Below, piece by piece: positions 1 through 36,239 of a stretch of DNA of 39,785 nucleotides. A program made the position numbers and the translations under genes. Positions within the stretch are counted from its first letter, which is position 1, and every line of letters begins with the position of its first letter. The notes beneath the pieces are model-generated. The model ran no database searches. It was given only the letters and a program-made list of their open reading frames with translations, and was not told the origin of the DNA. Source of the DNA: Gammaproteobacteria bacterium (GTDB taxonomy: Bacteria > Pseudomonadota > Gammaproteobacteria > Ga0077536); the NCBI GenBank assembly GCA_947450495.1, contig CANFVX010000002.1, positions 1-39,785 on the forward strand. Reading direction: 5' to 3'.

Positions 1-556
1 GCGACTCCGCCAGCAGTTGGATATGCGCCTCGGCGCGCATTCGTTCGCGGGCCTCCGCCACCGCCGCCGCGCAGGATTGGGCCTGCTGGTGGTCGGCGGT
101 GCCAAGCGTAAACGCCGTCCCCGCGGCCACCGCAACGCTCACTTCTGGCAGCGGCGCGAGCGCCACCGTATCGGCATCGAGCTGAATCACGAAGGCCTCG
201 CTCACGTATTCCGCAATCGCCGCCAGTCGCTCCCAGGTGCCACCCTGCGGTAAATCAGGGTGCTGGAACTCGCGCGCCTCACAGATTTCCACGCCCGGAA
301 AATGCCGCCGCAAGAGCCCACGATCCGCCGGCGTGATACTGGGATCTGCAATGACTACCAGTCGCCGCGCCGGCACGAAGCGCAGCAGCGATTTACACGC
401 CAGCAGCGCGGCGTGCACGTCACGATGCTGAATCATCGACAGCAGGATCGGCCCGCCGCCGCCCAGCGCCACGGGTGCCGTCTCCAGCATGCCGCGCACC
501 GTGCGGGCAAATCGGTAGCGATTGAGTTCCACCACCAAACGTTCCCCGTAGTTCAT
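1..556 (-). CDS. hypothetical protein, N-terminal part only (gene runs off the left edge); possible nucleotide-sugar transferase-like fold
   Basis: Hand translation of the minus strand from ATG 556-554 stays open to the window edge (MNYGERLVVELNRYRFARTVRGMLETAP...FVIQLDADTVALAP...). It is absent from the ORF track because there is no stop inside the window. Its start overlaps the stop of the upstream GT gene (ATGA junction at 553-556). No family recognised; a DAD motif is the only hint. Confidence 0.55.
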   Translation of the reverse strand, partial: MNYGERLVVELNRYRFARTVRGMLETAPVALGGGGPILLSMIQHRDVHAALLACKSLLRFVPARRLVVIADPSITPADRGLLRRHFPGVEICEAREFQHPDLPQGGTWERLAAIAEYVSEAFVIQLDADTVALAPLPEVSVAVAAGTAFTLGTADHQQAQSCAAAVAEARERMRAEAHIQLLAES

Positions 557-17622: not shown

Positions 17623-17873
17623 CCTGTTCTCCTGAATGCAAAGCGCCGTAGCGCAGGATTTACCGCATGGGGCATGGAATCGGGCAGATCTGGATGGTGG
17701 CATGCAGGCCAGACGCTGCTACGCCAGCGCGCGTCCGGAGCCTGATGTCGATCAGGAAGACCGGTCAGGCCGCTCAGCCTGCGGTGTCCAGTTTCTTTAC
17801 AGCATGGCAAACGGCGCAGGACCAAGGATTTGGGGCAAAGCACCCATGGCGGAGGCGGTGTGGGGCTGCAAGC

Positions 17874-17892
17874 CTGTCAATCAATTTGACAG
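17874..17892. promoter_or_regulatory. perfect 7-5-7 palindrome, candidate enhancer (UAS) for a sigma54 activator
   Basis: CTGTCAA-TCAAT-TTGACAG, centred about 90 bp upstream of the -24/-12 element at 17968-17983. A T-rich tract (GCGCTTTTTTGCTGTTTTTCC, about 17920-17940) lies between them. Confidence 0.45.
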
Positions 17893-17967
17893 TGCAGCCG
17901 CCATCGAGGATTCGTGATTGGCGCTTTTTTGCTGTTTTTCCGCGATTCAACGCAGCAGGGTCGGCTG

Positions 17968-17983
17968 TGGCATGGAAGGTGCT
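17968..17983 (+). promoter_or_regulatory. sigma54 (RpoN) -24/-12 promoter of the PEP-CTERM protein gene
   Basis: TGGCAT-GGAAG-GTGCT versus consensus TGGCAC-N5-TTGCW, with exact GG-N10-GC spacing. Located 65 nt upstream of the ATG at 18048, which has a GGAG SD. A sigma54-dependent activator (prsR) is encoded in the same locus. Confidence 0.65.
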
Positions 17984-18047
17984 CAATGCTCAACAAGTTT
18001 CAGCGCCCTGCAGAAACCTCCACCACACTCATTGAGGAGTAAGCACG

Positions 18048-19079
18048 ATGAACAAAACACGGACGATAGGGGCATCTCTCACGGCGATCATCGCAATGAC
18101 CTATGGCGGCCTTGCCCACGCCATTCCCAAGCCAGGTGCCGTCGGCGACGCCTACCTTGAGCTGAGCAAGTTCTACATTCTCGCCGGTGACCACAAAGCG
18201 GGCGTGAGTGGCACTGTGCTTGATATCAAATCCCCCCTTAATCCGGCCGGCGCCATCACCTTGGGCCCGGTGAACACCACCGCCGAGGTGGCGGGTTCGC
18301 TGAACGGCGTCTCTACGCCGCTGAACAAGGTGCTGGTTGGTCTGGGCGCGCCATTCAGCATTAGTTCCTCGCTGGGTTCTGGTTACGTGCCCTACGTCCG
18401 GCTGACCGGCAATCCCGGACCGGCGGACTGGATCGGTGCCTCTACCTCGTCTTCGGGTGATGGCTTGGCGCTTGCCTCGCCGGTGAATGTGCCGGTGGAA
18501 TCGCAGGTGGCTCTCGCACACTACGGCTCCGACGCCGGCAGCTCTGCCTACCAGAACCTGCAAAGCAACTTCTCCTTCACCTTGGCGGCTGGTCAGTTGT
18601 TTGAATTGAGCTTTGATGCCGACGGCTACCTCCGCACGGCGCTGGGTCAAGACGGCATTGTTGCCAATGCGAAATACAACTGGACCGCCTCCGTTGATCG
18701 CATCAACAAAACAGGTCCGGTAACCCACATGATGACCTGGAATCCCGATGGTGAGGTCGGTAGTGGCTACTCCTCCTCGCTGTGCCACACCACCAAGACC
18801 GACCCCTTGGGCGGCGGCAAATTCGACTGTAACGAGTATGCCGATGCGTTCCTGATGAACGATGGACTGGGCACCAACGGCGGGCCCGGTGAAAGCATTA
18901 CCGACCCGACAAAAGGGTCGTTCGAAATGGAGCTCTATCTGGCGGCCGGCACGTATAACTTCACCATTCAGCACAATACGCATGCGGATGCCGCGATTGG
19001 CGTACCCGAACCCACCACGCTGGCCCTGCTCGGGATTGGCATGTTGGGCATGGGCGCCAAACGCCGTCGGAAAATCTGA
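18048..19079 (+). CDS. PEP-CTERM sorting-domain protein (predicted exosortase A substrate)
   Basis: Sec signal peptide (SLTAIIAMTYGGLAHA). C-terminus GVPEPTTLALLGIGMLGMGAKRRRKI has the canonical VPEP motif, TM helix and Arg cluster. The mature region is Gly/Ser/Thr/Asn-rich with no domain I recognise. Confidence 0.92.
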   Translation: MNKTRTIGASLTAIIAMTYGGLAHAIPKPGAVGDAYLELSKFYILAGDHKAGVSGTVLDIKSPLNPAGAITLGPVNTTAEVAGSLNGVSTPLNKVLVGLGAPFSISSSLGSGYVPYVRLTGNPGPADWIGASTSSSGDGLALASPVNVPVESQVALAHYGSDAGSSAYQNLQSNFSFTLAAGQLFELSFDADGYLRTALGQDGIVANAKYNWTASVDRINKTGPVTHMMTWNPDGEVGSGYSSSLCHTTKTDPLGGGKFDCNEYADAFLMNDGLGTNGGPGESITDPTKGSFEMELYLAAGTYNFTIQHNTHADAAIGVPEPTTLALLGIGMLGMGAKRRRKI

Positions 19080-19104
19080 TTGCGCACAGCGATGTGCTCT
19101 TGGG

Positions 19105-19131
19105 AAACCCGCTTCGGCGGGTTTTTCTTTT
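19105..19131 (+). terminator. rho-independent terminator
   Basis: AAACCCGC-TTCG-GCGGGTTT: a perfect 8-bp stem with a UUCG tetraloop, followed by TTCTTTT, 26 nt after the PEP-CTERM gene stop. Confidence 0.85.
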
Positions 19132-19162
19132 GCCGGTTGATGGGAGGGGAAGCGGCGTGGTG

Positions 19163-20035
19163 ATGTCAATCGCAGCGATGGCCCGCCTGATTGCGCGGGA
19201 AATGCTCGGTGCGCGGCAGCAGGCGCGCGGCCCTACGCCGCTTGCACTGCTCAGCGAGGAAACCGTGCTGGACGCAATGCGCGGTGAGGGGCGCGCCGAA
19301 GGCCGGACCGCAGCGGGCTATCTCTATCACACGGCGCGCATCTCGCAGGTCTTGCAGGGTCGCCGGCGCTGCCTCGATCTGGGCTGCGGCACCGGCGTCC
19401 AACTCCTGCAGGTGGCGGGCTTCAATCCTGAAGTCCGGTTTGTAGGGGTTGATCAGAGCGCGACGCTGCTCGCCGCCGCCGAGGAGGACGCCAGGCGCCT
19501 TGGGCTTACCAACGTGAGCTTTCTGCGGGCAGACATGACCGGTCTTGCCGAGTTTGAAACCCGCGGCTTCGACGCGGTGGTCTCGACGATGAGCCTGCAC
19601 TTTTTGGCGGATCGCCCGGCACTGAGGGCGGCACTACTGGAAATGGCGCGCATCGGCGGCGTGGATGCCGCGTTTTATCTTGAGGATTTTGCGCGGCTCA
19701 AATCGCCGTTATCGGTGGCGTTTTTTCTTGACCGCAATGCGCAAGCGGCGCCCGATCCGTTTGACGCGCTCTATCGCGCGTCGCTCGAAGCCGCGTTCAC
19801 GCTGGATGAACTTAAAACCGAGATCGCCCACGCCCTGCCGCGCGCGGCGATGCATGTGACCAGTCCGGTGCCGTTCCTGCTGGTCGCCCATACGCCGGCC
19901 GCGCCGCTGCCGACCGCCTTGCGCGCACAATTCCGCTCGGCACGCGCCAGCCTAAGCCCCACTCAAAGTGCAGATCTGGACGCCTTGCGGCGCGCCTTCG
20001 CGCTGGGCGAATGGCGGGCCGACCCGTTCCACTGA
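19163..20035 (+). CDS. class I SAM-dependent methyltransferase
   Basis: Motif I LDLGCGTGVQLL, plus acidic post-I and motif II-like segments (FDAVVSTMSLHFL). The track start 19094 lies inside the terminator hairpin. Start moved to ATG 19163; GTG 19157 is also possible, 9 nt after the GGAGGGGA SD. Confidence 0.8.
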   Translation: MSIAAMARLIAREMLGARQQARGPTPLALLSEETVLDAMRGEGRAEGRTAAGYLYHTARISQVLQGRRRCLDLGCGTGVQLLQVAGFNPEVRFVGVDQSATLLAAAEEDARRLGLTNVSFLRADMTGLAEFETRGFDAVVSTMSLHFLADRPALRAALLEMARIGGVDAAFYLEDFARLKSPLSVAFFLDRNAQAAPDPFDALYRASLEAAFTLDELKTEIAHALPRAAMHVTSPVPFLLVAHTPAAPLPTALRAQFRSARASLSPTQSADLDALRRAFALGEWRADPFH

Positions 20036-20055
20036 GGGCCTCGCTTTCAGGCCCT
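20035..20055. terminator. hairpin between convergent genes (possible bidirectional terminator)
   Basis: AGGGCCT-CGCTTTC-AGGCCCT, a perfect 7-bp stem spanning both convergent stop codons (20033-20035 and 20047-20049). No clear U-tract. Confidence 0.4.
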
Positions 20056-21180
20056 GTGGCGGGTATTCGCCAGATAGTAGTCGAGCACCCTGGACAGCAC
20101 GACGCGGGTATCCGGGCGCTCGATGCCCAGCGCCTGCAGGCGCTCGCGGGTGCGGGTGTTGTCGAACACCTGCGCGCTGCCGAGGTAATCGAGATACACC
20201 GGCAAGGTGGCGAGGGTGCGCTGCTGGGCCGCCGGCAGCGCGCGCGCCAGCAGACTCATCAACCACAGAAAATACGCGGGCGGGAGCGGAATCGAGGGCC
20301 ACCAGGGCAGGCGACCCTCACGGCGCAAACGCGAACGGACCGTGTCGCGTAATTCAGTCAGCGGCAGCGCGCCGATCGGCCCGGCGCATAAATGCCAGAT
20401 TTCGCCCGCGCTATCCGGGCTGCGCGAGGCCGCCACGATGGCGTGCGCCACAAAGTCATTGGCGACGATATCCAGCACCGTATGCCCGAGTGCCGGATAG
20501 CAGCCAAGCGTGCGACGCCCGCTCAGAAATTCGCAGATGAACTGGAAAATCTGGAAGTGCGGCGTGACGCCGGTGCGCGAATCGCCCACCACCATGCTCG
20601 GGCGATGCACCGTCAGCGGTAATCCGGCGGCGGCGGCTTCGCGCAGCAGCACTTCTGATTCGGCTTTGGCTTCCTCATAGGTGTTGTGAAACGCGCGCGG
20701 CTCATCCAGCCAGCGCTCCGGCAGCGGACCCTGCCAGCGTCCCCCTACCCCCACCGTCGAGACCGCCTCCAGTTTGCGGAATCCCACGCAACGCCGGGCG
20801 AGTGCAATCAGGGTGGCGGTGGGGACGACCGTGGTTTCGCGCGCGATGGCGAGCGACTGGTTCAAGCGCACGCTGGCGGCGCAATGCACGATATGCGTAC
20901 AGCCTTGCTCCAACTCATGCTGATCGGCGGCGCTCAAACCGAGCGCCGGGGCGCTGATGTCGCCCGCCATCGCGCGCAAACGATGTTCCAAAGCCCCCGC
21001 CGGCAGCTGCAGATAATGGGCGCGCCAGAACTGCTTGAGGGCGTTGAAGCGGTCGGCGATCGAATGCCCGTTGCGTGCTCTCAACAGCACCACCACTTCA
21101 ACCTCCGGCAGGCCGAGCAAGGCGGGGATCAGCGCGCCGCCCACCACGCCGCTAGCCCCCGTGACGAAGTAGCAATCCAT
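20047..21180 (-). CDS. SDR-family thioester/fatty acyl reductase (NAD_binding_4, 'male sterility' type)
   Basis: N-terminal Rossmann motif FVTGASGVVGGAL, catalytic Y-x3-K (NTYEEAK), and the HCAASV segment typical of terminal reductase domains and fatty acyl-CoA reductases. Confidence 0.8.
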   Translation of the reverse strand: MDCYFVTGASGVVGGALIPALLGLPEVEVVVLLRARNGHSIADRFNALKQFWRAHYLQLPAGALEHRLRAMAGDISAPALGLSAADQHELEQGCTHIVHCAASVRLNQSLAIARETTVVPTATLIALARRCVGFRKLEAVSTVGVGGRWQGPLPERWLDEPRAFHNTYEEAKAESEVLLREAAAAGLPLTVHRPSMVVGDSRTGVTPHFQIFQFICEFLSGRRTLGCYPALGHTVLDIVANDFVAHAIVAASRSPDSAGEIWHLCAGPIGALPLTELRDTVRSRLRREGRLPWWPSIPLPPAYFLWLMSLLARALPAAQQRTLATLPVYLDYLGSAQVFDNTRTRERLQALGIERPDTRVVLSRVLDYYLANTRHRA

Positions 21181-21189
21181 ACGCTGTCC

Positions 21190-23001
21190 TTAAAGTCCCA
21201 ACATCAGCAAATCCGGGGCGAGGGCTTCGCAAAACCGCTCGCCTGCTCTGGCGTCGAGCGCGGCGTAAAGCCGATCGAGCAGGGGTTGATAGCGCGCCTC
21301 CAGCGCCCAACGGCGCAGCTTGAGGGAAGGCGTGAGGCTTTGGTTGGCGACCGTCAGCGGGGTGAGCGAGACCAGCAATCCCGCCGGGTGCGAATAGCCG
21401 GGCAGCGCCGCGAGACTGGCCGGCACGGCCGCCGCCAGTCGTTCGGCAAGCTGCCGGAAGGCCGCGGCATTCGTGAGGTTTTCAGGCTGCGGATCGGCGA
21501 GTGTGAGCAGGGCCACCGGCGCCTTGCGGCCCGCCCCGAACACCACCACATGGTCAACGCCGGGCAACTGCTGCAACACGCTTTCCAACAGCACCGGCGC
21601 GATCTTGCGCCCGGTCGAGGTTTTAAAAATCTCGCTTTTTCGGCCTGCGATGCGCAGATAGCCCTGGGCGTCGAGCTGCCCCAAATCGCCGGTATGCAAG
21701 TAGCCCTCGGCATCCACGGCGGGCGTCGTGCTCGCAGCGTTGAGATAGCCGTGAAAAACGCCGGGGCCGCGCACCAGTATTTCGCCGTCGTCGGCGATGG
21801 TGATTGCGTTAGGCGCGAGCACACGGCCTACTGTCCCCGCCTGATAGTCATCCAGCCGGTTCAGCGCCACGGGCACGATGTTTTCGCTCAGGCCGTAGGC
21901 TTCCAGCACCGGCAATCCCAGCGCCTGCAATTGTTCGAGCACCGCCAGGCCACAGGGCGCAGAGCCGCTGAGCATGGCGCGCACCTCACCGCCCACCGCG
22001 GCCCGCAGGCGCCGCAGCACCAGCCAATCTGCCGCCCAGTGCTGACACCGCAGGCAGGCGCCTGGCGGCTCGCCCGCGCGGTTTGACGCCGCCACGCGCG
22101 CCCCGACATCAACGGCCCAGGCCACAAGCCGTTGCTGCTGCGGCGAGCCCTCACGGCCCGCAAGGGCAAGACCCTGGGCCAGTTTTTCGTAGAAGCGCGG
22201 CACGCCAATCAACCAGTGCGGCCGGGCGATGGGCAGTATCTGGAGCAAGCGACGGGGCTCGGACAGCAACCAGCTCTGGGCCCCTGCCGCCACCGCGCAA
22301 AAGTTGATCACGCGCTGAAAGAGTCCGGACAACGGCAGCCAGCACACCAGTCGGTCGTCGGGATGAATCTGCGGAAAGGCGTGAAGGATCGCGTCCACCG
22401 CCACCGCACACTGCGCATGGGTGTAGACAATGCCACGCGGGTGGCCGGTGCTGCCGGAGGTGAACACGATGAGCGCCGGCGCGTTGGCGTTAAGGCCTTC
22501 GGCCGGCGCGACGCCCGGACTTGCCAGCAACGCCGACCATCGCCACCAGGCTTGCGTGACGCCCGCCGGTGCCGCCTCATCCGAGAAACAGATCACCCCC
22601 CGTAAGTTCGCGCGGGATGCGGCGGGCAGCCGCAGAAAGTTCGCGCTGTCGACCACCGCAAGCATGCCAATGCCGGCCGCGAGTAGCGTCTCGTCGAGCC
22701 TCTCGGCCGAATCCTGCGGGTCCAGCCCCACCACGACCGCCCCTGCCATGAGTGCCGCCACCTGCGTGAGTTCCCAGGGCAAATCGTTCGGCGCCAGAAT
22801 CCCGAGCCGCGTGCCGGGCGTCAGGCCGGCCGCCACCAGCGCGGCGGCAAGCGCTTCTGCTCGATGCAGGACCTCCAGCCAGGTGAGGCCCAGCCATTCG
22901 TCTTGCAGCCAATAGCGGAAAGCGATGAGGTCCGGCGTACGGCGCGCGCGCTCACGGTAGTAGTCGGGCAAGGTCCAGTGGCTGCCCGTGGCGGTAATCA
23001 C
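21190..23001 (-). CDS. AMP-dependent synthetase/ligase (acyl-CoA or acyl-AMP ligase family)
   Basis: AMP-binding core motif IVFTSGSTGHPRGIVYTH. Later motifs EAYGLSE, LHTGDLG and GRKSEIFKTSTGRKIAP. GTG start overlaps the upstream stop (GTGA at 22998-23001). Confidence 0.88.
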   Translation of the reverse strand: MITATGSHWTLPDYYRERARRTPDLIAFRYWLQDEWLGLTWLEVLHRAEALAAALVAAGLTPGTRLGILAPNDLPWELTQVAALMAGAVVVGLDPQDSAERLDETLLAAGIGMLAVVDSANFLRLPAASRANLRGVICFSDEAAPAGVTQAWWRWSALLASPGVAPAEGLNANAPALIVFTSGSTGHPRGIVYTHAQCAVAVDAILHAFPQIHPDDRLVCWLPLSGLFQRVINFCAVAAGAQSWLLSEPRRLLQILPIARPHWLIGVPRFYEKLAQGLALAGREGSPQQQRLVAWAVDVGARVAASNRAGEPPGACLRCQHWAADWLVLRRLRAAVGGEVRAMLSGSAPCGLAVLEQLQALGLPVLEAYGLSENIVPVALNRLDDYQAGTVGRVLAPNAITIADDGEILVRGPGVFHGYLNAASTTPAVDAEGYLHTGDLGQLDAQGYLRIAGRKSEIFKTSTGRKIAPVLLESVLQQLPGVDHVVVFGAGRKAPVALLTLADPQPENLTNAAAFRQLAERLAAAVPASLAALPGYSHPAGLLVSLTPLTVANQSLTPSLKLRRWALEARYQPLLDRLYAALDARAGERFCEALAPDLLMLGL

Positions 23002-24071
23002 GGCGTGAGTACCGGATCGTAGGCGCCGCGCGCTTCGGTGATCCGCAAGGATTCAGCGCTCAGCCCCAGCCAGTTCATTTGCTGAATCACGTTGTAGCCC
23101 AGCCCCACGCGCCACCGCACCATGGCGTCGACCACCGGTCCCATCACGCGCCACAGCGCGAGACTCGCCTTGCCTTCCCGAATCAGCGCGGAGAACTCCG
23201 GCGCATAAGGGTTGTAGCCAAAGTGTTTGAGATCGGAATACATCAGCAGCCAGTTGATGGGGTAATTGCTGAAGACCGGGCTCGCGTGCCGCGCACTCTT
23301 CACCAGCCCCAGCGCCACCACCTCGCGCATCACGGCCGCCTGGTCGTAAGGCCAGGCGTGAAACGGCGCGAGGTAGCGAGGAAAGCGGACGTTCGGCGGC
23401 CACTGGAGCGGATTGAAAAACCGCGCGAGGTCGGCCGCATCAAACAAGCCACTGCGCAGCAGCTGCGGGGGCGTCCAGTCGGTCTGCTCAATCAGCTGGC
23501 GTGAGAACTCATAGCGCATGCGCTCGGGCTCCGGCTGACCAGGCGAGTACCCCGCCATCACCAGCGGAATGTCTTTTTCCAGCGCGAGCCTGATGGCGTC
23601 GCCCTCAAACAACGGAGCGTAGACATAAGACACGGTGTAGACCGCGCCGCGCGCTTCCTGATGGCGCAAGAGATAGGCAAACAGACGACGGTAGAACTCG
23701 TCCGGCGGGGAATAGCTGATGTGATCGATCGACAGTCGCGCCAGGGTGTGCCGAATGTTGTCCCAGGCAATCGCGGGCAGATTCACATCCACGGTAAAGG
23801 CGAGCACCCGCAGGCGATGCTCCACCTTGAGCTTGTAGAGCAGCAGCGCGCTGTCTTTGCCACCGCTGAACGGCACCAGCACGTCGTATTGTCCGGTGCC
23901 GCGCGTGCTGGCCAGGGTGACCGCCAGATCGTCGGCAAACCCCCGCCGCTGAATTTCGGCCGTCTCCAGCAGTGCGGGCGCGAACTCGCGGCAATAAGCG
24001 CACACGCCGCGACGGTCAATCACCGCGCCCGGCGCGGCCCCGGGGAGCAAACAGCGTCGGCAGCGTTTCAT
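22998..24071 (-). CDS. Zn-ribbon + PP-loop ATP pyrophosphatase (N-acetyl sugar amidotransferase-like)
   Basis: N-terminal CRRC...GVCAYC four-Cys ribbon followed by the PP-loop LVPFSGGKDSALLL. This architecture matches the WbuX-type N-acetyl sugar amidotransferase family as I recall it. Confidence 0.7.
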   Translation of the reverse strand: MKRCRRCLLPGAAPGAVIDRRGVCAYCREFAPALLETAEIQRRGFADDLAVTLASTRGTGQYDVLVPFSGGKDSALLLYKLKVEHRLRVLAFTVDVNLPAIAWDNIRHTLARLSIDHISYSPPDEFYRRLFAYLLRHQEARGAVYTVSYVYAPLFEGDAIRLALEKDIPLVMAGYSPGQPEPERMRYEFSRQLIEQTDWTPPQLLRSGLFDAADLARFFNPLQWPPNVRFPRYLAPFHAWPYDQAAVMREVVALGLVKSARHASPVFSNYPINWLLMYSDLKHFGYNPYAPEFSALIREGKASLALWRVMGPVVDAMVRWRVGLGYNVIQQMNWLGLSAESLRITEARGAYDPVLTP

Positions 24072-24093
24072 GCCAATACCTCAGGTAAGTCAA

Positions 24094-25026
24094 TCAACAT
24101 GTCGGGCTGCCGCCGGTCAGCGCGTTGAGCAGCGCCTCCGCCTGTTGCAGATTGCAATAGCGCAGGCGCCACGCGTCGACGGCGTCAGTCAGCGCGCCAG
24201 CGCGTTCGAAGGCCTCCTGGCCCAGCAAGGTGTAATTGAAGGCGTTCTGCGTGAGCTGGGAAAAACATTCCGCCGGATGCAGCGCGCTGAATTCGGGGCT
24301 CGCGTCCGCGTCGTACTGCGGAAACACCACCCAGCGCGGGCGCGCGGTCTGATCCATGCGGCGCAGATGATCGAGCGGCGGCGAGAGATGCGAGACGGTG
24401 CCTTTGCGGGTGCCCGGAATGCAGGGGCCAAAAGTGGCGGCGGGCACGCGCTCCCGAATCAGCGCAATGGATTCGTTTTTGAGCGGAATCAGGCGCGGCA
24501 GCGGGTCGATGGTCAATTCGCGATCGCGAATAAGCGTGAATTCATCCGACAACAGGCGCCAGCCCCGATGGATGAGCCAGGCGCAGAGCGTGCTTTTACC
24601 CGCGCCCGGTTGGCCGGGCAGCAAGAGCGCGTGACCGTTGCGCTCGATCACTGCGGCGTGGAGCATCAGGTAGTGATGGGCGCGACTCGCCACACACCAG
24701 TTGATGGCCCACTCAAGATGCGCCAGCAGCGCACCCGGCGCGCACTCGGTAAAGGGCACGCCGTCTTCCAGCCCGAGGCAGAGCGGTCGTCGCAACGCGC
24801 GCGCGACCAGACTCTGCCCGAGCAAGCGGATCTCGCCGTCGGCGAAGCTGTCATCCGGCGCGAGGGGGTAGTCGGGATAGTAATCGTAGAGGCATTGCGC
24901 GAGTCGTCTATCGCGGCCCACAAGGCGCATCACAAAGGGCCCTAGCCTGAGATTGAGCCCGTCCGCGCAACGGGCGTGCAGTTCGCTGAAGGAGAGCCGC
25001 TTGAGCGTGGGCATGGGCGCACTCAT
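24094..25026 (-). CDS. HprK-related kinase (type A), HPr kinase/phosphorylase C-terminal-like P-loop protein
   Basis: P-loop LLLPGQPGAGKSTLCAWL followed by LLSDEF, as in the HPr kinase catalytic domain. 310 aa. ATGA overlap with the PqqD-like gene (25023-25026). Confidence 0.8.
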   Translation of the reverse strand: MSAPMPTLKRLSFSELHARCADGLNLRLGPFVMRLVGRDRRLAQCLYDYYPDYPLAPDDSFADGEIRLLGQSLVARALRRPLCLGLEDGVPFTECAPGALLAHLEWAINWCVASRAHHYLMLHAAVIERNGHALLLPGQPGAGKSTLCAWLIHRGWRLLSDEFTLIRDRELTIDPLPRLIPLKNESIALIRERVPAATFGPCIPGTRKGTVSHLSPPLDHLRRMDQTARPRWVVFPQYDADASPEFSALHPAECFSQLTQNAFNYTLLGQEAFERAGALTDAVDAWRLRYCNLQQAEALLNALTGGSPTC

Positions 25027-25328
25027 CGTGACGGGATCGGCTCGACGAGACCCAGACTGCTCATCACGCGCAGCGTGTCCGCGATCGCCTCACGGGTCGC
25101 ACTATCCGGCTCCGCGCCATGCTGTCGCAGCAGCGCGTCCTCGATCGCATCCAGCGACTGCGGCCCCGCCGCGAGCGCCGCTAACACGCTCACGGCGGCC
25201 TGATTCAAAAAATGCGTCTGCCCGGAGCGCATATCAAAAGCGAAATACGCTTCTTCCCACCGCTGCCAGAGCAGGTCTGCCGCCGGATCCGCCCGCCAGC
25301 GGGGTTCATGTGCGGGAGACTCTCGCAT
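25023..25328 (-). CDS. PqqD-family protein (RiPP recognition element-like peptide chaperone)
   Basis: 101 aa. YFAFDMRSGQTHFLNQAAVSVLAALAAGPQSLDAIEDALLRQHG...IADTLRVMSSLGLVEP follows the PqqD/RRE winged-helix pattern: a beta-strand that binds substrate, then a three-helix bundle ending in GLV/GLI. Confidence 0.78.
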   Translation of the reverse strand: MRESPAHEPRWRADPAADLLWQRWEEAYFAFDMRSGQTHFLNQAAVSVLAALAAGPQSLDAIEDALLRQHGAEPDSATREAIADTLRVMSSLGLVEPIPSR

Positions 25329-25904
25329 TTAGCCGGCCCTGCCCCAGAGCGATTTGAGGCACGCACCACTGAGGCTGGTGACCAGCGCATCCGGCGGCGT
25401 GCGCGGCTCGCCCACGGCCAGCACCGAGCCGTCCCGCGCGCTGAAATGCACGATCGCCAGCCCTTCGCGACAAGGCTTGGCGGACAAGCTGCGCTTGAGA
25501 TCCAGCGAGCGGCTGTTGCCCGGCGCGTTGATGAACGGAATTTCGGCATCGCCGACGGGTTCACCGGTCGCAACGTAGCGCCAGCACGCTTGCTGGTCGC
25601 GGCTCCCGATCCCTTCGAAATATTGCGCGACGCCTGAGGCGCTATAGCCGGCAATCTGGCCGCGCCGGTCTTTCTGCGCAATGAGTTGGTCGTAGCACGC
25701 CACACGCTCGCGGAAGAACTCGTCCTTTGCAAACGCGAGAGGCCGACACGGTCGCTCACTCGGCGGCTGGCCGCAGGCGAGACTGGTGCGCGCCGCCGCC
25801 TGTGCGGCAGTGCTGCCCAAAGTCATCACCGCCGGCAAGGCCAGCGTCGTGCCTTTGAGAAAACGTCGACGACGTTCATTGGGCTGAGTCGTTGGCTTAT
25901 CCAT
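25329..25904 (-). CDS. Tat-signal secreted protein of unknown function (6 Cys)
   Basis: Start at MDKPTTQPNERRRRFLKGTTLALPAVMTLGSTAAQAAA (ATG 25904, GGAG SD 8 nt upstream); the track ORF to 26204 is an Arg-rich extension. Twin-arginine motif RRRFLK plus h-region plus AQA. The mature part of about 150 aa has 6 Cys and matches no family I recognise. Its stop TAA abuts the PqqD ATG with zero spacer. Confidence 0.7.
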   Translation of the reverse strand: MDKPTTQPNERRRRFLKGTTLALPAVMTLGSTAAQAAARTSLACGQPPSERPCRPLAFAKDEFFRERVACYDQLIAQKDRRGQIAGYSASGVAQYFEGIGSRDQQACWRYVATGEPVGDAEIPFINAPGNSRSLDLKRSLSAKPCREGLAIVHFSARDGSVLAVGEPRTPPDALVTSLSGACLKSLWGRAG

Positions 25905-26023
25905 CAGCACCACTCCAAAGGGTAAGAAGAGGATTCGGGGTTTTCTTGCGCCATGCCAAGTGGCGTGACTCGCAACAATGATTTCCTTGCGCGACGCCAG
26001 CGGGCCGCTGTAGCGGCGCTTGA

Positions 26024-27163
26024 ATGCCGACCACGCCACGCCGTCGCCAACTGAACTGGAGGGATCCCTTGCGCAAACAATTTCTGCTGGCGCTGCGCCA
26101 GCCCGCACTGCTCGCCAACCACGACCAACGCGCCTGGCAACACTTGCTGGCACTGGGCCGCCTGCACGCCGTTTCCGGACGGTGGCACGCCCAACTGGAA
26201 GCACTGGATTGGTTGCCGCAGGTGCCTACTCCGGTGCGCCGTCATCTGTGGTCTGACCATTGCGTGGCCAGCGCGCACGAGCGCCGCGCACGCTGGGAAA
26301 TCGACCGTCTGAGCAGAGTGCTCAATCCCACCGGCATCCCGTGGGCATTGCTCAAAGGCGCGGCGTACCTCGCGGCCGATCTGCCAAGCGCGCGCGGTCG
26401 CCTGTTGGCGGATGTGGATGTGCTGGTGCCTCACGCGGAGCTCGCCCGGGTGGAGCGTCTTCTGCACCAGCAAGGCTGGCACGACACCCCTCACGATGCT
26501 TATGACGATCGGTACTACCGCGAATGGATGCACGAACTCCCTCCTTTGCAACACGGCACCCGTGGCACCACGCTTGATGTTCATCACACCCTCCTGCCCC
26601 TGACCGATCCGCTGCATCCCGATGGCGGCGAATTGCTGAGCCGCCGGGTGGCCGCCAGCGGCGAGACCTGCGTGCTCGCCCCGGCCGATCTCGTGCTGCA
26701 CAGCGTGCTTCACGGGTTTCATGCGGGCGACCTGCAGCACTGCTTGCGCGATGTGCTGGACGTCTACGAACTCATGACCCACTTCGTTTTGCAGTCAGGC
26801 GATGCGTTCTGGATCTCGCTGGTTGACCGCGCTTTGAGACTACGCGCCGTGCGCGCCCTGCGAATTGCGTTGAGTCAGGCTGAAGGACATTTCGAGTTGG
26901 CCGTGCCGGCGTTCGTCAAACGCGAACTCCGACAGGCCGATCGCGGGCTCACGCCGGTGGCCTTGCTTGCGCAGTTGATGAACCAGCTGGTGGTGCCGGC
27001 CTTGCCGCCGGCGCGGATGTCGCGCATCGCGCATCGCGTGCTGAGCGTGCGCACCCATCTGCTGAAAATGCCGCTGCGGCGTCTGGTCCCGCACGCCCTC
27101 CACAAGACCTGGCAGAAGTGGCGTCCGGATACCGGCGCCGCGCCCACCGTGGTGGTGAAATAG
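26024..27163 (+). CDS. nucleotidyltransferase family protein (NTP_transf_5 / 'uncharacterised nucleotidyltransferase' type)
   Basis: LLKGAAYLAADLPSARGRLLADVDVLVPHAELARVERLLHQQGW ... HELPPLQHGTRGTTLDVHHTLLP matches the pattern of this family (Pol-beta-like DxD, later HH motif). Divergent from the Tat-protein operon. The start codon is not certain. Confidence 0.75.
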   Translation: MPTTPRRRQLNWRDPLRKQFLLALRQPALLANHDQRAWQHLLALGRLHAVSGRWHAQLEALDWLPQVPTPVRRHLWSDHCVASAHERRARWEIDRLSRVLNPTGIPWALLKGAAYLAADLPSARGRLLADVDVLVPHAELARVERLLHQQGWHDTPHDAYDDRYYREWMHELPPLQHGTRGTTLDVHHTLLPLTDPLHPDGGELLSRRVAASGETCVLAPADLVLHSVLHGFHAGDLQHCLRDVLDVYELMTHFVLQSGDAFWISLVDRALRLRAVRALRIALSQAEGHFELAVPAFVKRELRQADRGLTPVALLAQLMNQLVVPALPPARMSRIAHRVLSVRTHLLKMPLRRLVPHALHKTWQKWRPDTGAAPTVVVK

Positions 27164-27928: not shown

Positions 27929-29269
27929 TCAATGCAGGCCGTATTTCTTGATGAGGTGATAAACCGTGGGGCGACTCACCCCAAGCACATCGGCTGCCTT
28001 GCCGATCTGTCCATGGCTCGCGGCCAGTGCTAACTGAATCGCGCCCGCCTCGGCTTCGTCTCGCACTTCGCGCAAGGTCCTGAAGCCATTCGCCACGGGC
28101 AACTCGAGTTCGAGATCCGCCGCCTCGATCACGAGATGGTCGGCCATGATCACGGCGCGTTTCACCCGGTTCTCGAGTTCCCGCACGTTACCCGGCCAGT
28201 CATGGGCTTCGATGGCAGCGAGGGCTGAAGGACTGAAGTCCCGCACCTGCGCGCCATAAAGTTCACGGAAGCGGCTGAGCAAGGCGCGCGCGATGAGGAT
28301 TGCGTCGCCGGGACGCGCCCGCAGCGGCGGAATCGCGATGGATAATTCGCTCACGCGGTAGTAGAGATCTTCGCGAAACAGGCGCTCGGCCATGAGCGTG
28401 CGGAGGTCTTTGTGGGTGGCGCAGATAACCCGCGTATCCACCGCAATTTCCTCACGTCCCCCCACGCGTTCGATCACGCGCTCCTGCATGAAGCGCAACA
28501 GCTTGGCCTGCAGACTCAAGGGCAAATCGCCCATTTCGTCGAGAAAGAGCGTGCCGCCGTCGGCGTACTCGAGCTTGCCGCGGGTTTGTCGCACGGCGCC
28601 GGTAAACGCGCCGCGCTCGTAGCCAAACAGTTCGCTTTCCAGCAGTTGTTCGGGGATCGCGGCGCAGTTAATCGCCACGAAGGCCTGCGCGTGGCGCGGG
28701 CTTTGTTCGTGGATGGCGCGCGCCAGCACTTCCTTGCCGGTGCCGCTCTCTCCTTGCAGCAGGACGGTGGCGCTGGTGGGCGCCAGCCGCTCGATGCGGC
28801 GGCAGACTTCAAGCATCGAAGCGCTGGCGGCGATAAGCCCGGTGCAGGCATTCCGCTGCGCGGCGATGAGCTGCTGGTTTTCGCTTTCGAGCGCGGCAAG
28901 ACGCTGCGCGCGGGCGATGATCAGCCGCAGTACGTCCGGATCTACCGGCTTCTCATAAAAGTCGTAAGCGCCCAGCGCCACCGCCCGGATGGCGACTTCG
29001 CGATCATCGTTGCCGGTCACCACAATGACCTTGGTGCTGGGCGCCGCGCGGAGAATTTCGGACAGGGCGAGCAGACCTTCCGAGGCATTGGCCGGGTCCG
29101 GCGGCAAGCCCAAATCCAGCGTCACCACCGGCGGCTGCCAACGGCGCACAGCGTCCAGCGCCGAGGCGCGGTCGGTCGCGAGCGACAGTTCGTATTCCGA
29201 CAAGGCCCACTTGAGTTGGGTGAGCACGCCCGGATCGTCGTCAACCAGCAGGAGTCGTGGCGGCGTCAT
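27929..29269 (-). CDS. prsR: PEP-CTERM-box response regulator, sigma54-dependent transcriptional activator
   Basis: Start at MTPPRLLLVDDDPGVL (index 75 of the track ORF; ATGA overlap with the prsK stop). REC domain, AAA+ sigma54-interaction domain (GESGTGKEVLARAIH, ELFGYERGAFTGA) and C-terminal Fis-type HTH (AADVLGVSRPTVYHLIKKYGL). Confidence 0.92.
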   Translation of the reverse strand: MTPPRLLLVDDDPGVLTQLKWALSEYELSLATDRASALDAVRRWQPPVVTLDLGLPPDPANASEGLLALSEILRAAPSTKVIVVTGNDDREVAIRAVALGAYDFYEKPVDPDVLRLIIARAQRLAALESENQQLIAAQRNACTGLIAASASMLEVCRRIERLAPTSATVLLQGESGTGKEVLARAIHEQSPRHAQAFVAINCAAIPEQLLESELFGYERGAFTGAVRQTRGKLEYADGGTLFLDEMGDLPLSLQAKLLRFMQERVIERVGGREEIAVDTRVICATHKDLRTLMAERLFREDLYYRVSELSIAIPPLRARPGDAILIARALLSRFRELYGAQVRDFSPSALAAIEAHDWPGNVRELENRVKRAVIMADHLVIEAADLELELPVANGFRTLREVRDEAEAGAIQLALAASHGQIGKAADVLGVSRPTVYHLIKKYGLH

Positions 29270-31368
29270 GCGTGCGCCACCGCCGGCGGCAAAGCGTGCG
29301 CTCGATCGAGCGGCAGGCTGATCCGGAAAGTGGTACCGGCCCCCGGCGCGCTCACCACCGACAACTTCCCGCCCGCCGCGCGCACCACGTGCAGACTTTC
29401 GTAAACCCCCATCCCCATGCCTGCTTTTCCTTTGGTGGTCGCAAACGGTTTGAACAACTGCTCCTGCACGAACGCTTCGCTCATCCCGCAACCGGTGTCC
29501 TCAATGCGAATCACGGCGCGGTCGTCGCTGCGAGAAAGTTCCACCCGAATCGACCCGGTAGCGGGCGTCGCGTCCTGCGCGTTTTGCAGCAGGTGCTCCA
29601 GCACGGCGGTGAGCCGTTCCGCCGCGCCGTGGACGGGCAGCGCCTGCGCATGGGTGATGAATTGGGGCTGCGGTAGTCGCGCTTTGACTTGCTCCACGGC
29701 CGAGCGCGTGACCGACACCAAATCGCAGACTTCCGTTTGAAAGCTCTCCGGCACCTGACGAAACGCGCTCAGCACGCGGGAGAGCTTGGTGGTGGCGTCT
29801 TGTACGGTGCGCAGGGCGTCGTCCACGAAGTCCTGATTGTGGCGATGGCGCTCGGCGTTGCGATTGACCAGCATCAGTTGGGCCAGAACGTTCTTGAGGT
29901 CATGCACGAGAAAGGCCGAAAGCCGGTTAAAAGCGTCGAACTGCCGGGCCTCCGCCAGCGCATCGGAGGCGCGGAGCAAGGCGAGATAGCCGGCCGCCTG
30001 ACGACTCATCGTGCGCAGCAGTCCGCGATCCTCAGGGGTCATGCCCGATTCCGATCGGCGATCACCCAGCAGCATCAGCGCGAGTAACTCGTTCTGGTGA
30101 ATGAGGGGCACCAGTGCCCAGGCCCGCGGCATCTCCAGTAACCAGCCGGGCAACAGATTCTCCGCGTCCAGCGTGCTTCTGGCCGCTTCTGCCCGCAGTT
30201 CCAAGGCGCCGTCATCGTTGGCAAAGCGCTTCAGCAAGGGATGGTCTTCCGCCAATTCGGCGTCGCGCGGGGCGGCGATCACCCACTGGGCCACGCTTAA
30301 AAAATTGCCCGCAGGCCCCTTCTGCCACAGCACGGCGCCCGTGCTGTCCATCACATCGGCAAAGGCCCTCAGCAAATTCTGGCGAAAATCGAGCGGATTC
30401 TGATCAAGCTGCGCGAGCCTTGCGGTGAACGACATCCACGCAGATTGATAGTCGTGTCGATGCGGATAGAAGTGCCGCGCGAGAAAATCCTTCACACCTG
30501 AGCGCAGGCTGGCGGAGGCCAGCAGCGAGACCATCACCAACAGTGCGAGGGAGCTCAATACAATTCGCAGCGCCCCGCCCCAACTACCGCCGAATACTTT
30601 GACGTAATAGCCGGCGATCGCCATGAACAGCAGATAAAGGCCGGCGGCCGACATCACCGTGACGTGCAGCGCGGCCTGTCGGGAAAGCCGAGGCGCCTGC
30701 GTCAGATGACGACACCGCATGGCGCTGATCGCAATCAGCGGCACCGCAAAAGCGTTCACGATGCTTCTGGCGGTCCACCAGTCGGGGTCGATCTGGCCAA
30801 ACAGCAGGCCGTCGGCATACAGCGCAAAGTCATACAGCAGCACGGAGCCGAGACCGAAGCCCAGATGCTTTACCGACCAGCGGGACTCATCGCGAGTGTT
30901 GCGATAGAGCTGCTCGATGAGCACCAGCCCCAACACCGACTGCAACAGAAACCCCACACGCACAATGCCCGCAACGCCCGGCCCCAAGGGTGACCATGAG
31001 CTCAGCGCCAGCGCGAGCAAGCCGCACAGCAGGCCTACGATCAGGCTGAAGCTGCGACTCAGGCCTTGCAGAAAGGATTCGAAACCCGCGCTGGCGCCCG
31101 TCTGTTCCAAGGCCGCAACGAGCACCCGGAACCACAGCAGGTCGCGCAACAGTTCAAGCCATTGCAGCACCACCGCCAGCTTGAGTGCGCCGTCGTCATA
31201 AGGCGCGCAGGTCTGCACGAGCAGCCAGCAGGCCGTCGCGGCGGCGGCAGGGATGAGCGCGCCGTTGAGCCTCGAACCCCGGAGCACGGTCAGCAGCAAG
31301 AGACAGAGCGCGCCAAACGCGAGGACCCCGACCGCGCCAAACAGGGACACCAGATCGGGCAGCGTCAT
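29266..31368 (-). CDS. prsK: PEP-CTERM system sensor histidine kinase
   Basis: About 300 aa of multiple TM segments, a GAF-like middle region, a DHp H-box (FLVHDLKNVL) and HATPase_c motifs (IEDTGCGMS, GMGMGV). ATGA overlap with the upstream sugar transferase. Confidence 0.9.
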   Translation of the reverse strand: MTLPDLVSLFGAVGVLAFGALCLLLLTVLRGSRLNGALIPAAAATACWLLVQTCAPYDDGALKLAVVLQWLELLRDLLWFRVLVAALEQTGASAGFESFLQGLSRSFSLIVGLLCGLLALALSSWSPLGPGVAGIVRVGFLLQSVLGLVLIEQLYRNTRDESRWSVKHLGFGLGSVLLYDFALYADGLLFGQIDPDWWTARSIVNAFAVPLIAISAMRCRHLTQAPRLSRQAALHVTVMSAAGLYLLFMAIAGYYVKVFGGSWGGALRIVLSSLALLVMVSLLASASLRSGVKDFLARHFYPHRHDYQSAWMSFTARLAQLDQNPLDFRQNLLRAFADVMDSTGAVLWQKGPAGNFLSVAQWVIAAPRDAELAEDHPLLKRFANDDGALELRAEAARSTLDAENLLPGWLLEMPRAWALVPLIHQNELLALMLLGDRRSESGMTPEDRGLLRTMSRQAAGYLALLRASDALAEARQFDAFNRLSAFLVHDLKNVLAQLMLVNRNAERHRHNQDFVDDALRTVQDATTKLSRVLSAFRQVPESFQTEVCDLVSVTRSAVEQVKARLPQPQFITHAQALPVHGAAERLTAVLEHLLQNAQDATPATGSIRVELSRSDDRAVIRIEDTGCGMSEAFVQEQLFKPFATTKGKAGMGMGVYESLHVVRAAGGKLSVVSAPGAGTTFRISLPLDRAHALPPAVAHA

Positions 31369-32970: not shown

Positions 32971-34803
32971 CTATTCGACGGTAACGGACTTGGCGAGGTT
33001 ACGCGGCTGGTCGACGTCGGCGCCTTTTAGCACCGCCACGTGATAGGCCAGCAATTGCAGCGGCACGGTGTAGACCACCGGCGCGATGGCCTCGTGCACG
33101 GCCGGCAGGCTCGTGACATGGATCGCGGGGTGCGTGGACACGGTGGCCTGACTGTCGGCAAAGATATACAGCTGACCGCCACGCGCGCGCACTTCTTCGA
33201 GGTTGGATTTCAGCTTCTCGAGCAGATCGTTGCGCGGGGCCACCGCGATCACCGGCATTTCATCGTCGACCAGGGCCAAAGGCCCGTGCTTCAACTCACC
33301 GGCCGGATACGCTTCGGCGTGGATATAGGAAATCTCCTTGAGCTTGAGCGCACCTTCCATCGCGATGGGGAACATGGTGCCGCGCCCCAGATACAGGGCG
33401 TGTTGCTTGTTGACGAAGTGCTCGGCGAGCGCGGCAATCCCGTCGTTTAGTTCGAGCACCGCGTTGATTTTTCCGGGCAGACTTTCGAGCGCGGCCACCA
33501 ACTCGAGTTCGGTAGCCTCGCTCATGCCGTGACGTCTGCCCAGCGCGATCGTGAGCAGCATCAAGGCCACCAGCTGGGTGGTGAAGGCCTTGGTGGAGGC
33601 CACACCAATTTCTGGCCCCGCGCGCGTCATCAAGACCAGTTCGGATTCCCGCGTAAGCGAGCTTTCGGGCACATTGCAAATGGCGAGTGCGTGCGCGAAA
33701 CCGCGACTTCTGGCTTCGCGGAGCGCAGCGAGCGTGTCGGCGGTTTCACCAGACTGGGAGATCGTCACAAACAGGGTGTTGGGACGCACCACGGGATTGC
33801 GGTAACGGAATTCGCTGGCTACTTCGACAGTGCAGGGAATGCCTGCAAGGTCTTCCAGCCAGTATTTGGCCACGGTGCCGGCATGAAAACTCGTGCCGCA
33901 GGCCACGATATTGACCTCACGCACCGCTGCCAGCATGGACGCCGCCTGCGGCCCCAGAAGGTCGTGGGCCAGTCGGCCGTTGACGATTCGACCTTCCAGG
34001 GTTTCGGCCACGGCTCTGGCCTGAGTAAAGATTTCCTTCAGCATGAAATGTCGATAGCCGGCCTTCTCGACCGCGTCCGCGCTGAGGTTGGAGATGCTTT
34101 CGGGACGGGTCACGACCTGACCGTCGGCATCGTAGATAGTGACCTTGTGCCGGGTAATTTCGGCGGTGTCGCCATCCTCCAGAAAGATGAAGCGCTGCGT
34201 GACGGGTAATAGCGCAAAGACATCGGAAGCAATGAAGTTCTCACCAATACCAAGCCCAATCACCAGCGGGCCGCCGCAACGGCTCGCGATGAGGCGCTCG
34301 GGCTCATCTTTAGAAATCACCCCAAACGCAAAAGCCCCTTCCAGCATTTTCGCGGTGGCCTGCACCGCGCTCAGCAGATCCTTGCCGGCATCAAGAAAAA
34401 CGTGAATCTGGTTGACCGCGACTTCGGTGTCGGTGTCGGAGTGGAATTCGTAGCCGGCGGCAGTTAAATCCGCCCGGAGCTTGGCGTGATTCTCGATAAT
34501 GCCGTTGTGCACCAGCGCCACCCGATCTCGCGCCACATGCGGATGCGCGTTGCGGGTACTGGGTTCGCCATGAGTCGCCCAACGCGTATGGGCAATGCCG
34601 AGCGTGCCGTCCAGAGGCGTGGTGAGCATCTCACGCTCCAGCCCCGCAACTTTGCCTTGCACCCGCACGCGCTCGATTGTGGTGTGGGCCCCCACCACCG
34701 CGATGCCGGCGGAATCGTAGCCGCGGTACTCAAGGCGCTTGAGTCCCTCGAGAAGAATAGGACTTACAAATCTTTGCGCTACCGCGCCAACGATTCCACA
34801 CAT
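32971..34803 (-). CDS. glmS: glutamine--fructose-6-phosphate aminotransferase (isomerizing)
   Basis: MCGIVGAV Ntn-Cys start, two SIS domains, C-terminal ...NLAKSVTVE. 610 aa, the full-length canonical size. Confidence 0.97.
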
Positions 34804-34910
34804 AAGTTGCTCAGCCGCCGTTGCCTGTCAGTGCCGGGAGTATAACGGACGCGGCATTGCGGGAATGTTGAAGGAATGCGCGAGAAGATGAGCCAGTGCA
34901 GGTCGGAGGC

Positions 34911-36237: not shown

Positions 36238-36239
36238 GG

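Follow-up and report, generated by a model that had tools for sequence, protein, structure and literature searches.

A Tat-signal protein as the candidate substrate of a probable four-gene, RiPP-like modification module in an exosortase A locus

The closest described relatives of the gene module analysed here, which lies in a 39,785-nucleotide stretch of a gammaproteobacterial genome (contig CANFVX010000002.1; the whole stretch is called the window below), are pathways for ribosomally synthesised, post-translationally modified peptides (RiPPs) that involve HprK-like kinases. Linear polyphosphorylated peptides (LPPs) were described from Bacillota by Popov et al. (Nat Commun 2026; PMC13381572). 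Their clusters encode the RiPP recognition element (RRE) LppB, the HprK-like kinase LppK, the NTP transferase LppN, the SipW-like LppS and the MsbA-like exporter LppD, together with one to three precursors of 35–200 aa that have a conserved N-terminus and variable C-termini (PMC13381572). The residue that LppK polyphosphorylates is Ser3 of the core, and leader cleavage by LppS takes place upon presentation by the RRE; the clusters are embedded in capsular polysaccharide loci and were considered by the authors to be restricted to Bacillota (PMC13381572). In the biosynthesis of pseudomycoidin, PsmK phosphorylates the C-terminal Ser and PsmN then adds one or two hexoses to the phosphate (PMC6993621).

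We found in the window what is probably, though not firmly, a four-gene RiPP-like (LPP-like) protein-modification module with a co-encoded protein, here called TatP, as its substrate. TatP carries a leader of the twin-arginine translocation (Tat) type, and the other three genes encode a PqqD-family protein, an HprK-related kinase and a nucleotidyltransferase-fold enzyme. What the sequences themselves show are family memberships, intact catalytic residues, four-gene synteny, an architecture of conserved leader and variable core, flanking Ser/Cys motifs and enrichment near exosortase A (XrtA) genes; each chemical and binding step of the mechanism given below is one that we infer. The genes and sites are as follows (HMM, hidden Markov model; A2, the TatP family alignment).

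25329–25904, minus strand: TatP, precursor-like Tat-signal protein, 191 aa (leader HMM, A2)
25791–25874, minus strand: leader, TatP residues 11–38, RRRRFLKGTTLALPAVMTLGSTAAQAAA (Tat consensus, h-region, AxA)
25773–25784, minus strand: S41-x-x-C44 at the predicted signal-peptidase site, candidate modification site (invariant in A2)
25347–25361, minus strand: C182-L-K-S185-L (CxxS[LF]), candidate modification site (A2 conservation)
25023–25328, minus strand: PqqD-family RRE protein, 101 aa (TIGR04353)
24094–25026, minus strand: HprK-related kinase A, 310 aa, predicted Ser kinase (TIGR04352)
26024–27163, plus strand: NTP_transf_5 nucleotidyltransferase-fold enzyme, 379 aa, divergent (PF14907)
25905–26023, no strand: divergent intergenic region of 119 nt, presumed promoters of both transcription units

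The module and its Tat-leader gene

A first-pass annotation of the window, made from the sequence alone, had assigned three proteins to the PqqD, HprK-like and NTP_transf_5 families, and searches with Pfam and NCBIfam HMMs placed the same three genes in these families. The PqqD-family protein scored 54.7 bits on TIGR04353 (PqqD_rel_X, 'HPr-rel-A system PqqD family peptide chaperone'; cut-off 35) and 20.6 bits on Pfam PqqD (PF05402), just below the gathering score of 23.4; of 30 PqqD-like proteins collected from related cassettes, 12 matched the Pfam model (E<0.01). A profile of these 30 proteins (A3) had lasso RREs as its best meaningful matches in PDB, namely TbiB1 (5v1u, E=0.006, full length) and TfuB1 (6jx3, E=0.1). 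The window protein as a single sequence gave only a spurious repeat match in PDB, to a TAL effector, and a word-indexed homologue search with it returned only two proteins.

The kinase scored 311.3 bits on TIGR04352 (HprK_rel_A; cut-off 200) over profile positions 1–280 of 280, with weaker matches of its P-loop region to HPr(Ser) kinase and ScmC, and with a match to Pfam Hpr_kinase_C (E=2.8e-5). Among 25 aligned homologues, H123, K144 (within the P-loop PGAGKST) and D161 were invariant and E162 was conserved in at least 90%; the SDE segment aligned with the ADD of HprK (LVADD region), the second Asp being conservatively replaced by Glu. By this alignment, the four residues correspond to the His-Lys-Asp-Asp set that is essential in lasso-peptide kinases (PMC9266682), and the active site looks intact. 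The AlphaFold2 (AF2) model of the kinase had a pLDDT of 95 and matched ATP-PEPCK (E~1e-7) and then HprK/P (E~3e-3) in a Foldseek search. HprK itself is a member of the PEPCK-like fold group. The HprK-related kinase A family is large, with at least 2,527 proteins at E<=1e-5 when 8,000 candidates were scored.

The divergently transcribed enzyme scored 161.3 bits on PF14907 (cut-off 31.2), with no matching model in NCBIfam and no match in a PDB sequence search. Its residues D130 and D132 (nt 26411–26419), invariant in 75/75 homologues, are taken to be the equivalent of the D134/D136 pair of PsmN, which is essential and inactivates the enzyme when mutated (PMC6993621).

We then compared 80 genome loci that contained the best-scoring relatives of the kinase, each with 10-kb flanks and translated in six frames to open reading frames (ORFs), using phmmer with the window proteins and all-against-all clustering of the ORFs. 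NTP_transf_5 adjoined the kinase in 78–79 of the 80 loci, mostly directly downstream and only in few divergently as in the window, and a PqqD-like ORF was found directly upstream of the kinase in at least 69. The ORF directly upstream of PqqD was in 60 loci about 200 aa long (194–305 aa from stop to stop) and began with a twin-arginine N-terminus, SRRRF.K.G; the remaining loci had a seemingly unrelated ORF in that position with the same kind of twin-arginine N-terminus. A 35-residue HMM of this leader detected a leader ORF in 76 of the 80 loci, always within the cassette and never elsewhere in the 20-kb loci. In 70 loci it lay upstream of PqqD, in the other six downstream of NTP_transf_5. Three of the four loci without a leader ORF ended with the contig there, and the fourth (L037) had a transposase in that position. 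No conserved fifth gene family was found around the kinase in the 80 loci.

The loci with the Tat-leader gene downstream of NTP_transf_5 were L025 (2275–3774), L028 (2165–3580), L024, L033, L062 and L076. BLAST clustering revealed tandem precursor-type ORFs in L025 and L028, both copies being seen by the leader HMM only in L028; tandem duplication is common among RiPP precursor genes. In L037 (Phycisphaeraceae, ~8780–9660), the only complete locus lacking a leader ORF, the transposase-like gene directly upstream of PqqD suggests that the precursor was lost or displaced by insertion of an insertion sequence (IS).

The leader HMM was first trained on the same 80 loci, which was offset by a leave-out test, an independent profile and checks of gene context. 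An HMM built from 58 other loci, with the window and its closest relative L002 excluded, gave just one significant match among all ORFs of the window, namely TatP (E=5e-4; 0.23 for the next ORF). A word-indexed search returned 23 proteins of the window TatP family, and an exhaustive profile search of 1.84 billion proteins returned 156 representatives of 74–295 aa, of which about 35 aligned over most of the profile and the others only at positions ~8–90, the leader; the leader family included short members of 74–113 aa. We inspected the contigs of seven relatives, two close TatP homologues and five leader matches that the profile search had found without any context information. A PqqD-sized gene followed directly on all seven, indicating that the leader is a specific marker of the cassette; the next gene encoded a ScmC-family kinase on five and was cut by the contig end on the other two, and NTP_transf_5 was found on four. 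Searched against Pfam and NCBIfam at E<=1, five Tat-leader proteins gave only TAT-signal matches below threshold and, to an unrelated enzyme family, one match at chance level (E=0.011); in RefSeq the gene is entered as 'hypothetical protein' beside its correctly named partners.

These results revise the first-pass annotation mainly in respect of TatP. It had named this protein only as one of two candidates for co-folding with the PqqD-family protein. The TatP gene proves to be the near-universal fourth gene of the cassette, and its question as to which further genes travel with the trio is answered by the same gene. The NTP_transf_5 and PqqD genes are not adjacent as it had described them, since the 191-aa Tat-signal gene stands between them, and where it saw no short precursor gene, the cassette includes a dedicated precursor-like protein in the same operon, the Tat-signal protein (25329–25904), with its leader in 76/80 loci and on 7/7 contigs.

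TatP is the first gene of a six-gene minus-strand operon (20047–25904) that continues with PqqD, the kinase, a PP-loop protein, an acyl-CoA ligase and a thioester reductase, the successive spacers being 0, -4, 22, -4 and 9 nt (negative values denote overlap), and a GGAG ribosome-binding site lies 5 nt ahead of its ATG at 25904. Simple sigma-70 and sigma-54 scans of the divergent gap revealed no such site. Two ORFs of 29 and 33 aa in the 119-nt gap were considered as short precursors and rejected, with conserved counterparts in 0/80 loci. No lasso cyclase, B2 protease or other classical RiPP machinery was found among the window ORFs scanned with HMMs. The first-pass statements on tight operon spacing, on a missing lasso cyclase and protease and on the lack of a precursor ORF below 60 aa all held, the two ORFs of the gap not being conserved.

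Leader, core and Ser/Cys motifs of TatP

The leader of TatP comprises RRRRFLKG, a 20-residue uncharged stretch and AAA, which were all invariant in the family alignment. The invariant leader positions in A2 were R12, R13, F15, L16, K17, G18, T19, A22, L23, P24, A25, V26, T28, L29, A34 and A38, and the leader consensus across 77 precursors was d.sRRRL.KaGLaaagVllTLaS. Cleavage by signal peptidase behind A38, an invariant residue (A-A-A), would make S41 residue 3 of the mature protein.

Both candidate modification sites combine Ser and Cys. S41, C44 and C182 were invariant and S185 was nearly invariant in A2. Among leader-bearing representatives, SxxC occurred at RR+20..+44 in 89/141, compared with 7/565 control windows, and the first Cys fell at RR+29..33 in 136/141; CxxS[LFMIVA] was found within the last 18 residues of 121/150 representatives, compared with 6/725 internal windows. 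The 25 residues after the signal, taken over all precursor types, were rich in Ser (15.9% versus 8.1%) and Cys (6.5% versus 2.4%).

The AF2 model of TatP had an overall pLDDT of 60, with a beta-rich core at residues 61–165 (block-mean pLDDT >80 at 71–130 and 61–73 in the rest of the core), and residues 1–60 and 171–191 were disordered, so that both motif-bearing ends fall in predicted disordered segments. A Foldseek search of the model against PDB gave nothing below E=0.3. Median pairwise identities among loci fell from 0.45 (kinase) through 0.38 (NTP_transf_5) and 0.34 (leader) to 0.22 in the core, and the cores are therefore essentially unalignable.

Precursors of other loci fell into further types. 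Type A leaders were followed by a junction motif C[KQ]SPSGf.SGN.S.H, and type B leaders by an AAASCTG junction, with a Ser-rich C-terminal VAILSS.SA.S. A distinct precursor type was observed in L007, L008, L009, L019, L021, L050 and L061 (Accumulibacter / Methylococcaceae), in which the leader ends in LRSGALAAASCTG, fitting a loose lipobox pattern, and the C-terminus is Ser-rich (VAILSS.SA.S) and contains no Cys. This type was paired with a distinct PqqD subtype (..SSTETHVFNETT..), and none of its five loci with full flanks (L019 and L021 were shorter and left out) had an XrtA-system gene within 10 kb. We also observed an AhpC/redoxin gene after the kinase in L088 (3255–3839) and an ORF of thioredoxin-like appearance, judged by its sequence, in the same place in L003; a redoxin-type gene beside the kinase could be relevant to the conserved precursor cysteines.

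Gene context in and outside exosortase loci

The window contains a complete XrtA/PEP-CTERM exopolysaccharide locus, with XrtA-EpsI at 4246–6264 (minus strand, 302 bits) and genes for stp1/stp3 glycosyltransferases, FemAB, a deacetylase, an ATPase, an outer-membrane protein, a Tyr kinase, a chain-length determinant, an exporter, PrsT, PrsK, PrsR, EpsB_2 and exosort_acyl. The cassette is located between the gene of an EDSAP-1 PEP-CTERM protein (18048–19079) and prsK/prsR, and the genes beyond the locus are glmS, tRNA-Pro, ihfA and pheTS. Exactly the same gene order recurs in another genome (L081).

The first-pass annotation had proposed to look for enrichment of the trio near exosortase loci, and such enrichment was found: of the 53 fully flanked loci, 30 had XrtA-system genes (E<1e-20 to window proteins) at a distance of up to 10 kb, where roughly 1% would be expected by chance for a 30–40-kb locus in a several-megabase genome, and a PEP-CTERM protein gene directly followed the cassette in about 24 loci. 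Neither an XrtA nor a PEP-CTERM gene was found within 10 kb in about 40% of the full loci. In Accumulibacter, the module lies between glnD and a caspase/FGE-sulfatase-domain gene, beside uppS, pyrH, tsf and rpsB, and on Vibrio and Sphingomonas plasmids it occurs as a bare four-gene unit, XrtA genes not being nearby. The association of the cassette with XrtA is real and not obligatory. TatP itself ends in ...ACLKSLWGRAG and shows none of the elements of a PEP-CTERM sorting signal (PEP motif, transmembrane segment, basic tail), and phmmer with the EDSAP-1 protein gave a match only in L002, the PEP-CTERM neighbours not being one conserved family.

Three further operon genes follow the kinase in the window.

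22998–24071, minus strand: WbuX-like PP-loop protein, 357 aa (family match)
21190–23001, minus strand: AMP-forming acyl-CoA ligase (family match)
20047–21180, minus strand: thioester reductase (family match)

The PP-loop protein is Cys-rich, contains SGGKDS and scored 78.9 bits on WbuX N-acetyl-sugar amidotransferase (cut-off 203), with no match in Pfam. The three genes are translationally coupled to the kinase. As a trio after the kinase, they were found only in the window subtype (L001, L002, L081 and L082) and are missing from most cassettes; they may encode extra tailoring enzymes, either for the precursor or for the polysaccharide.

Several side observations concern the rest of the window. 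A sigma-54-like sequence, TGGCATGGAAGGTGCT (two mismatches), is located at 17968–17983 on the plus strand, 65 nt upstream of the EDSAP-1 PEP-CTERM gene (18048), and would fit control by the sigma-54 activator PrsR (27929–29491); sigma-54-like matches across the window were no more frequent than by chance (23 versus 26 expected). The longest ORFs of PrsR (27929–29491, minus strand) and XrtA-EpsI (4246–6264, minus strand) have N-terminal extensions of about 80 and 170 aa, respectively, that lie outside the family HMMs; these ORFs overlap neighbouring genes, and the true starts are probably further downstream. Between glmS and pheT (34803–36240), we noted a Sel1-repeat-like lipoprotein ORF (34911–35381), tRNA-Pro(GGG) (35416–35492), a MerR-like ORF (35601–35957) and ihfA (35935–36237). 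The GC content drops from ~0.65 to ~0.59 from 34 kb on, at the right-hand end of the exopolysaccharide island. In L081, a relative of the window subtype, two MacB/FtsX-type permease genes were found between a methyltransferase gene and the PEP-CTERM gene (16981–19872).

Proposed pathway, alternatives and relation to known systems

In the pathway that we propose, the substrate would be the 191-aa TatP, whose N-terminal Tat export signal would also be the conserved leader. In the cytoplasm, the PqqD-family protein would act as an RRE that binds the precursor, the leader segment (..LALPAVMTL..) being the likeliest contact, and would present it to the HprK-related kinase, which would phosphorylate Ser, possibly several times. 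By analogy with LppK, PadeK and PsmK, the candidate phosphosites are S41 of the SxxC at the leader/core junction and S185 of the C-terminal CxxS[LF]. The NTP_transf_5 enzyme may then attach a sugar or nucleotide to the phosphoserine, in the way that PsmN attaches hexoses. The modified and folded protein would leave through the general Tat system and signal peptidase I would cut off the leader, which would account for the lack of peptidase and exporter genes dedicated to the module. Judging from gene context, the product would be a periplasmic or surface phospho(glyco)protein that is often, not obligatorily, coupled to XrtA/PEP-CTERM exopolysaccharide. Since the leader family also includes members of 74–113 aa, the module appears to follow a RiPP-like logic with long precursors rather than to be an enzyme set for PEP-CTERM proteins.

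Leader similarity among the loci tracked PqqD similarity when kinase similarity was controlled (partial Mantel, partial r=0.24, p=0.002) and did not track NTP_transf_5 similarity (r=0.03), a co-divergence that gives weak extra support to the pairing of RRE and leader and is confounded by adjacent-gene linkage and phylogeny. This confounding is one of several points that weigh against the proposed pathway. In bufferins, the only RiPPs with a signal peptide that are well studied, the Sec signal is dispensable for modification (PMC11626156), and the RRE may for this reason bind the core instead of the leader. The [Y/W]xxP motif that lasso and LPP RREs use is also missing its Tyr/Trp in the TatP leader, and TatP scored only 13 bits on the TAT_signal HMMs, below the cut-offs of 16.7 and 22.7. 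Type A, which predominates among the precursors of the other loci, has a conserved core that looks folded, and its motifs are unlike those of the window's type. LppN showed no activity in a heterologous host, leaving the role of the NTP transferase uncertain even in the LPP system (PMC13381572). The 80 loci, finally, comprise the best-scoring relatives and form taxonomic clumps, with many Oxalobacteraceae.

Three alternatives were weighed against these data. TatP could be the substrate of a different chemistry, in which the motif Ser is activated by phosphorylation or nucleotidylation and then eliminated, with attack by Cys producing lanthionine-like thioether staples or otherwise tied termini and with NTP_transf_5 as the activating or eliminating enzyme. 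The invariant Cys paired with Ser at i/i+3 on both ends of a hypervariable core would suit such crosslinks, and a kinase-then-elimination logic is established for class III/IV lanthipeptide synthetases; the undetected activity of LppN in the LPP study (PMC13381572) likewise leaves room for such a role of the NTP transferase. We nevertheless consider this chemistry unlikely: the cassette contains no lyase or cyclase homologue, the products of the characterised relatives PadeK, PsmK and LppK all keep a stable phosphate or polyphosphate, plain periplasmic disulfides could account for the cysteines, and the Ser-rich tail at the end of type B precursors contains no Cys.

The target of the cassette could instead be a different exosortase-system protein, for instance the EDSAP-1 PEP-CTERM protein (18048–19079), with TatP as a co-regulated periplasmic accessory. 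The position of the window cassette between a PEP-CTERM gene and prsK/prsR, the XrtA-system genes within 10 kb in 30 of 53 full loci and the PEP-CTERM gene directly after about 24 cassettes would fit this, but they sit poorly with the ~40% of full loci that have no XrtA or PEP-CTERM gene within 10 kb, with the bare four-gene unit in Accumulibacter and on Vibrio and Sphingomonas plasmids, and with PEP-CTERM neighbours that are not one family (EDSAP-1 matching only in L002). The Tat-leader gene is also the only universally linked non-enzyme gene, and we judge this alternative quite improbable. The first-pass annotation had inferred a protein-sized substrate tied to the XrtA/PEP-CTERM pathway; the size stands, and an aim at PEP-CTERM proteins probably does not, given a dedicated Tat-leader precursor and a module that is autonomous elsewhere. 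Least probable of all, and in our view very unlikely, is a small-molecule pathway feeding the exopolysaccharide (sugar-1-phosphate to NDP-sugar, or a lipid-linked intermediate) to which the PqqD and Tat proteins are unrelated. Sugar activation classically pairs a kinase with a nucleotidyltransferase, the cassette is often found in polysaccharide loci and the kinase shares its fold with PEPCK, a small-molecule enzyme. The sequence relatives of the kinase, however, are Ser kinases of proteins and peptides (HprK, ScmC and the lasso kinases), nearly every locus keeps the RRE-type PqqD protein and the leader ORF together with it, PsmN and LppN, the sole characterised NTP transferases of such type, serve peptide pathways, and the module also occurs outside polysaccharide loci.

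The proposed modification of TatP may be part of a broader scheme, which we put forward as a conceivable but doubtful extension. The Tat signal would double as a RiPP leader and the RRE would hold precursors of 70–300 aa in the cytoplasm in the manner of a Tat proofreading chaperone, so that the kinase and the NTP_transf_5 enzyme install phospho-linked glyco- or nucleotidyl groups or Ser-to-Cys crosslinks at SxxC/CxxS on either side of the hypervariable core before export; the products would form a large unrecognised class of modified proteobacterial periplasmic and surface proteins that are coupled to exopolysaccharide and PEP-CTERM matrix assembly. For the named HPr-rel-A system, a large family hitherto without a substrate, the Tat-leader gene in any case provides a concrete candidate protein with defined serines. 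A modified secreted protein would be a recurring part of exosortase/exopolysaccharide loci, which are important in biofilm and floc formation, and the leader and motif signatures could become an annotation model for genes that are now called 'hypothetical protein'.

Our literature search found no relevant paper on the HprK-related kinase A names or on exosortase together with PqqD or HPr kinase, and no report of a RiPP precursor with a Tat leader. To our knowledge, there is no earlier case of a twin-arginine signal that serves as, or overlaps, a RiPP leader; if the proposed role of TatP is true, it would be the first. The window proteins are bona fide members of the 'HPr-rel-A system' of NCBIfam (TIGR04352 and TIGR04353), after which RefSeq names homologous cassettes, although NCBIfam has no model for the fourth, Tat-leader gene. 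The first-pass statement that the system had no demonstrated substrate or function stands for the proteobacterial family and is qualified by the LPP analogue (PMC13381572).

Bufferins resemble the present system in their long RiPP precursors, in a general export signal that takes the place of a dedicated transporter and peptidase, in Cys-containing periplasmic products and in an RRE-like partner protein, but they use Sec instead of Tat and MNIO/DUF2063 enzymes instead of a kinase and a nucleotidyltransferase (PMC11626156). With the lasso systems of the paeninodin and pseudomycoidin type (PadeK, ThcoK, SyanK, PsmK and PsmN), the cassette shares an HprK-family kinase with the H-K-D-D(E) set, an NTP_transf-type enzyme with a DxD pair, a PqqD/B1 RRE and a Ser at a conserved terminal position of the precursor. 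It differs in that the C cyclase and B2 protease were found neither in the window nor in the cassette of any locus, and in that its precursors are protein-sized and carry an export signal.

Compared with LPP clusters, no SipW-like SpI peptidase or MsbA-like/ABC exporter was found among the large window ORFs scanned, the leader is of the twin-arginine type without YxxP, although PAVMTL resembles the PxVL of the LPP motif YxxPxVLxHQ.., and descriptions of LppA mention neither SxxC nor CxxS[LF]. The hosts also differ, being Pseudomonadota here, with few loci in Acidobacteriota and Planctomycetota. In other respects the systems agree: both combine a discrete PqqD-type RRE, an HprK-like kinase and an NTP transferase without a macrolactam cyclase, both have long precursors (35–200 aa in LPPs and 71–295 aa here) in which the N-terminal leader is conserved and the C-terminal portion varies, and both include clusters with more than one precursor gene and occur in polysaccharide loci. 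S41, as residue 3 of the mature protein if A38 is the cleavage site, would coincide in position, as read from the sequence, with core Ser3 of LPPs. If the proposed function is true, the phosphorylated-peptide chemistry of the LPP/paeninodin type would extend from Bacillota to Proteobacteria.

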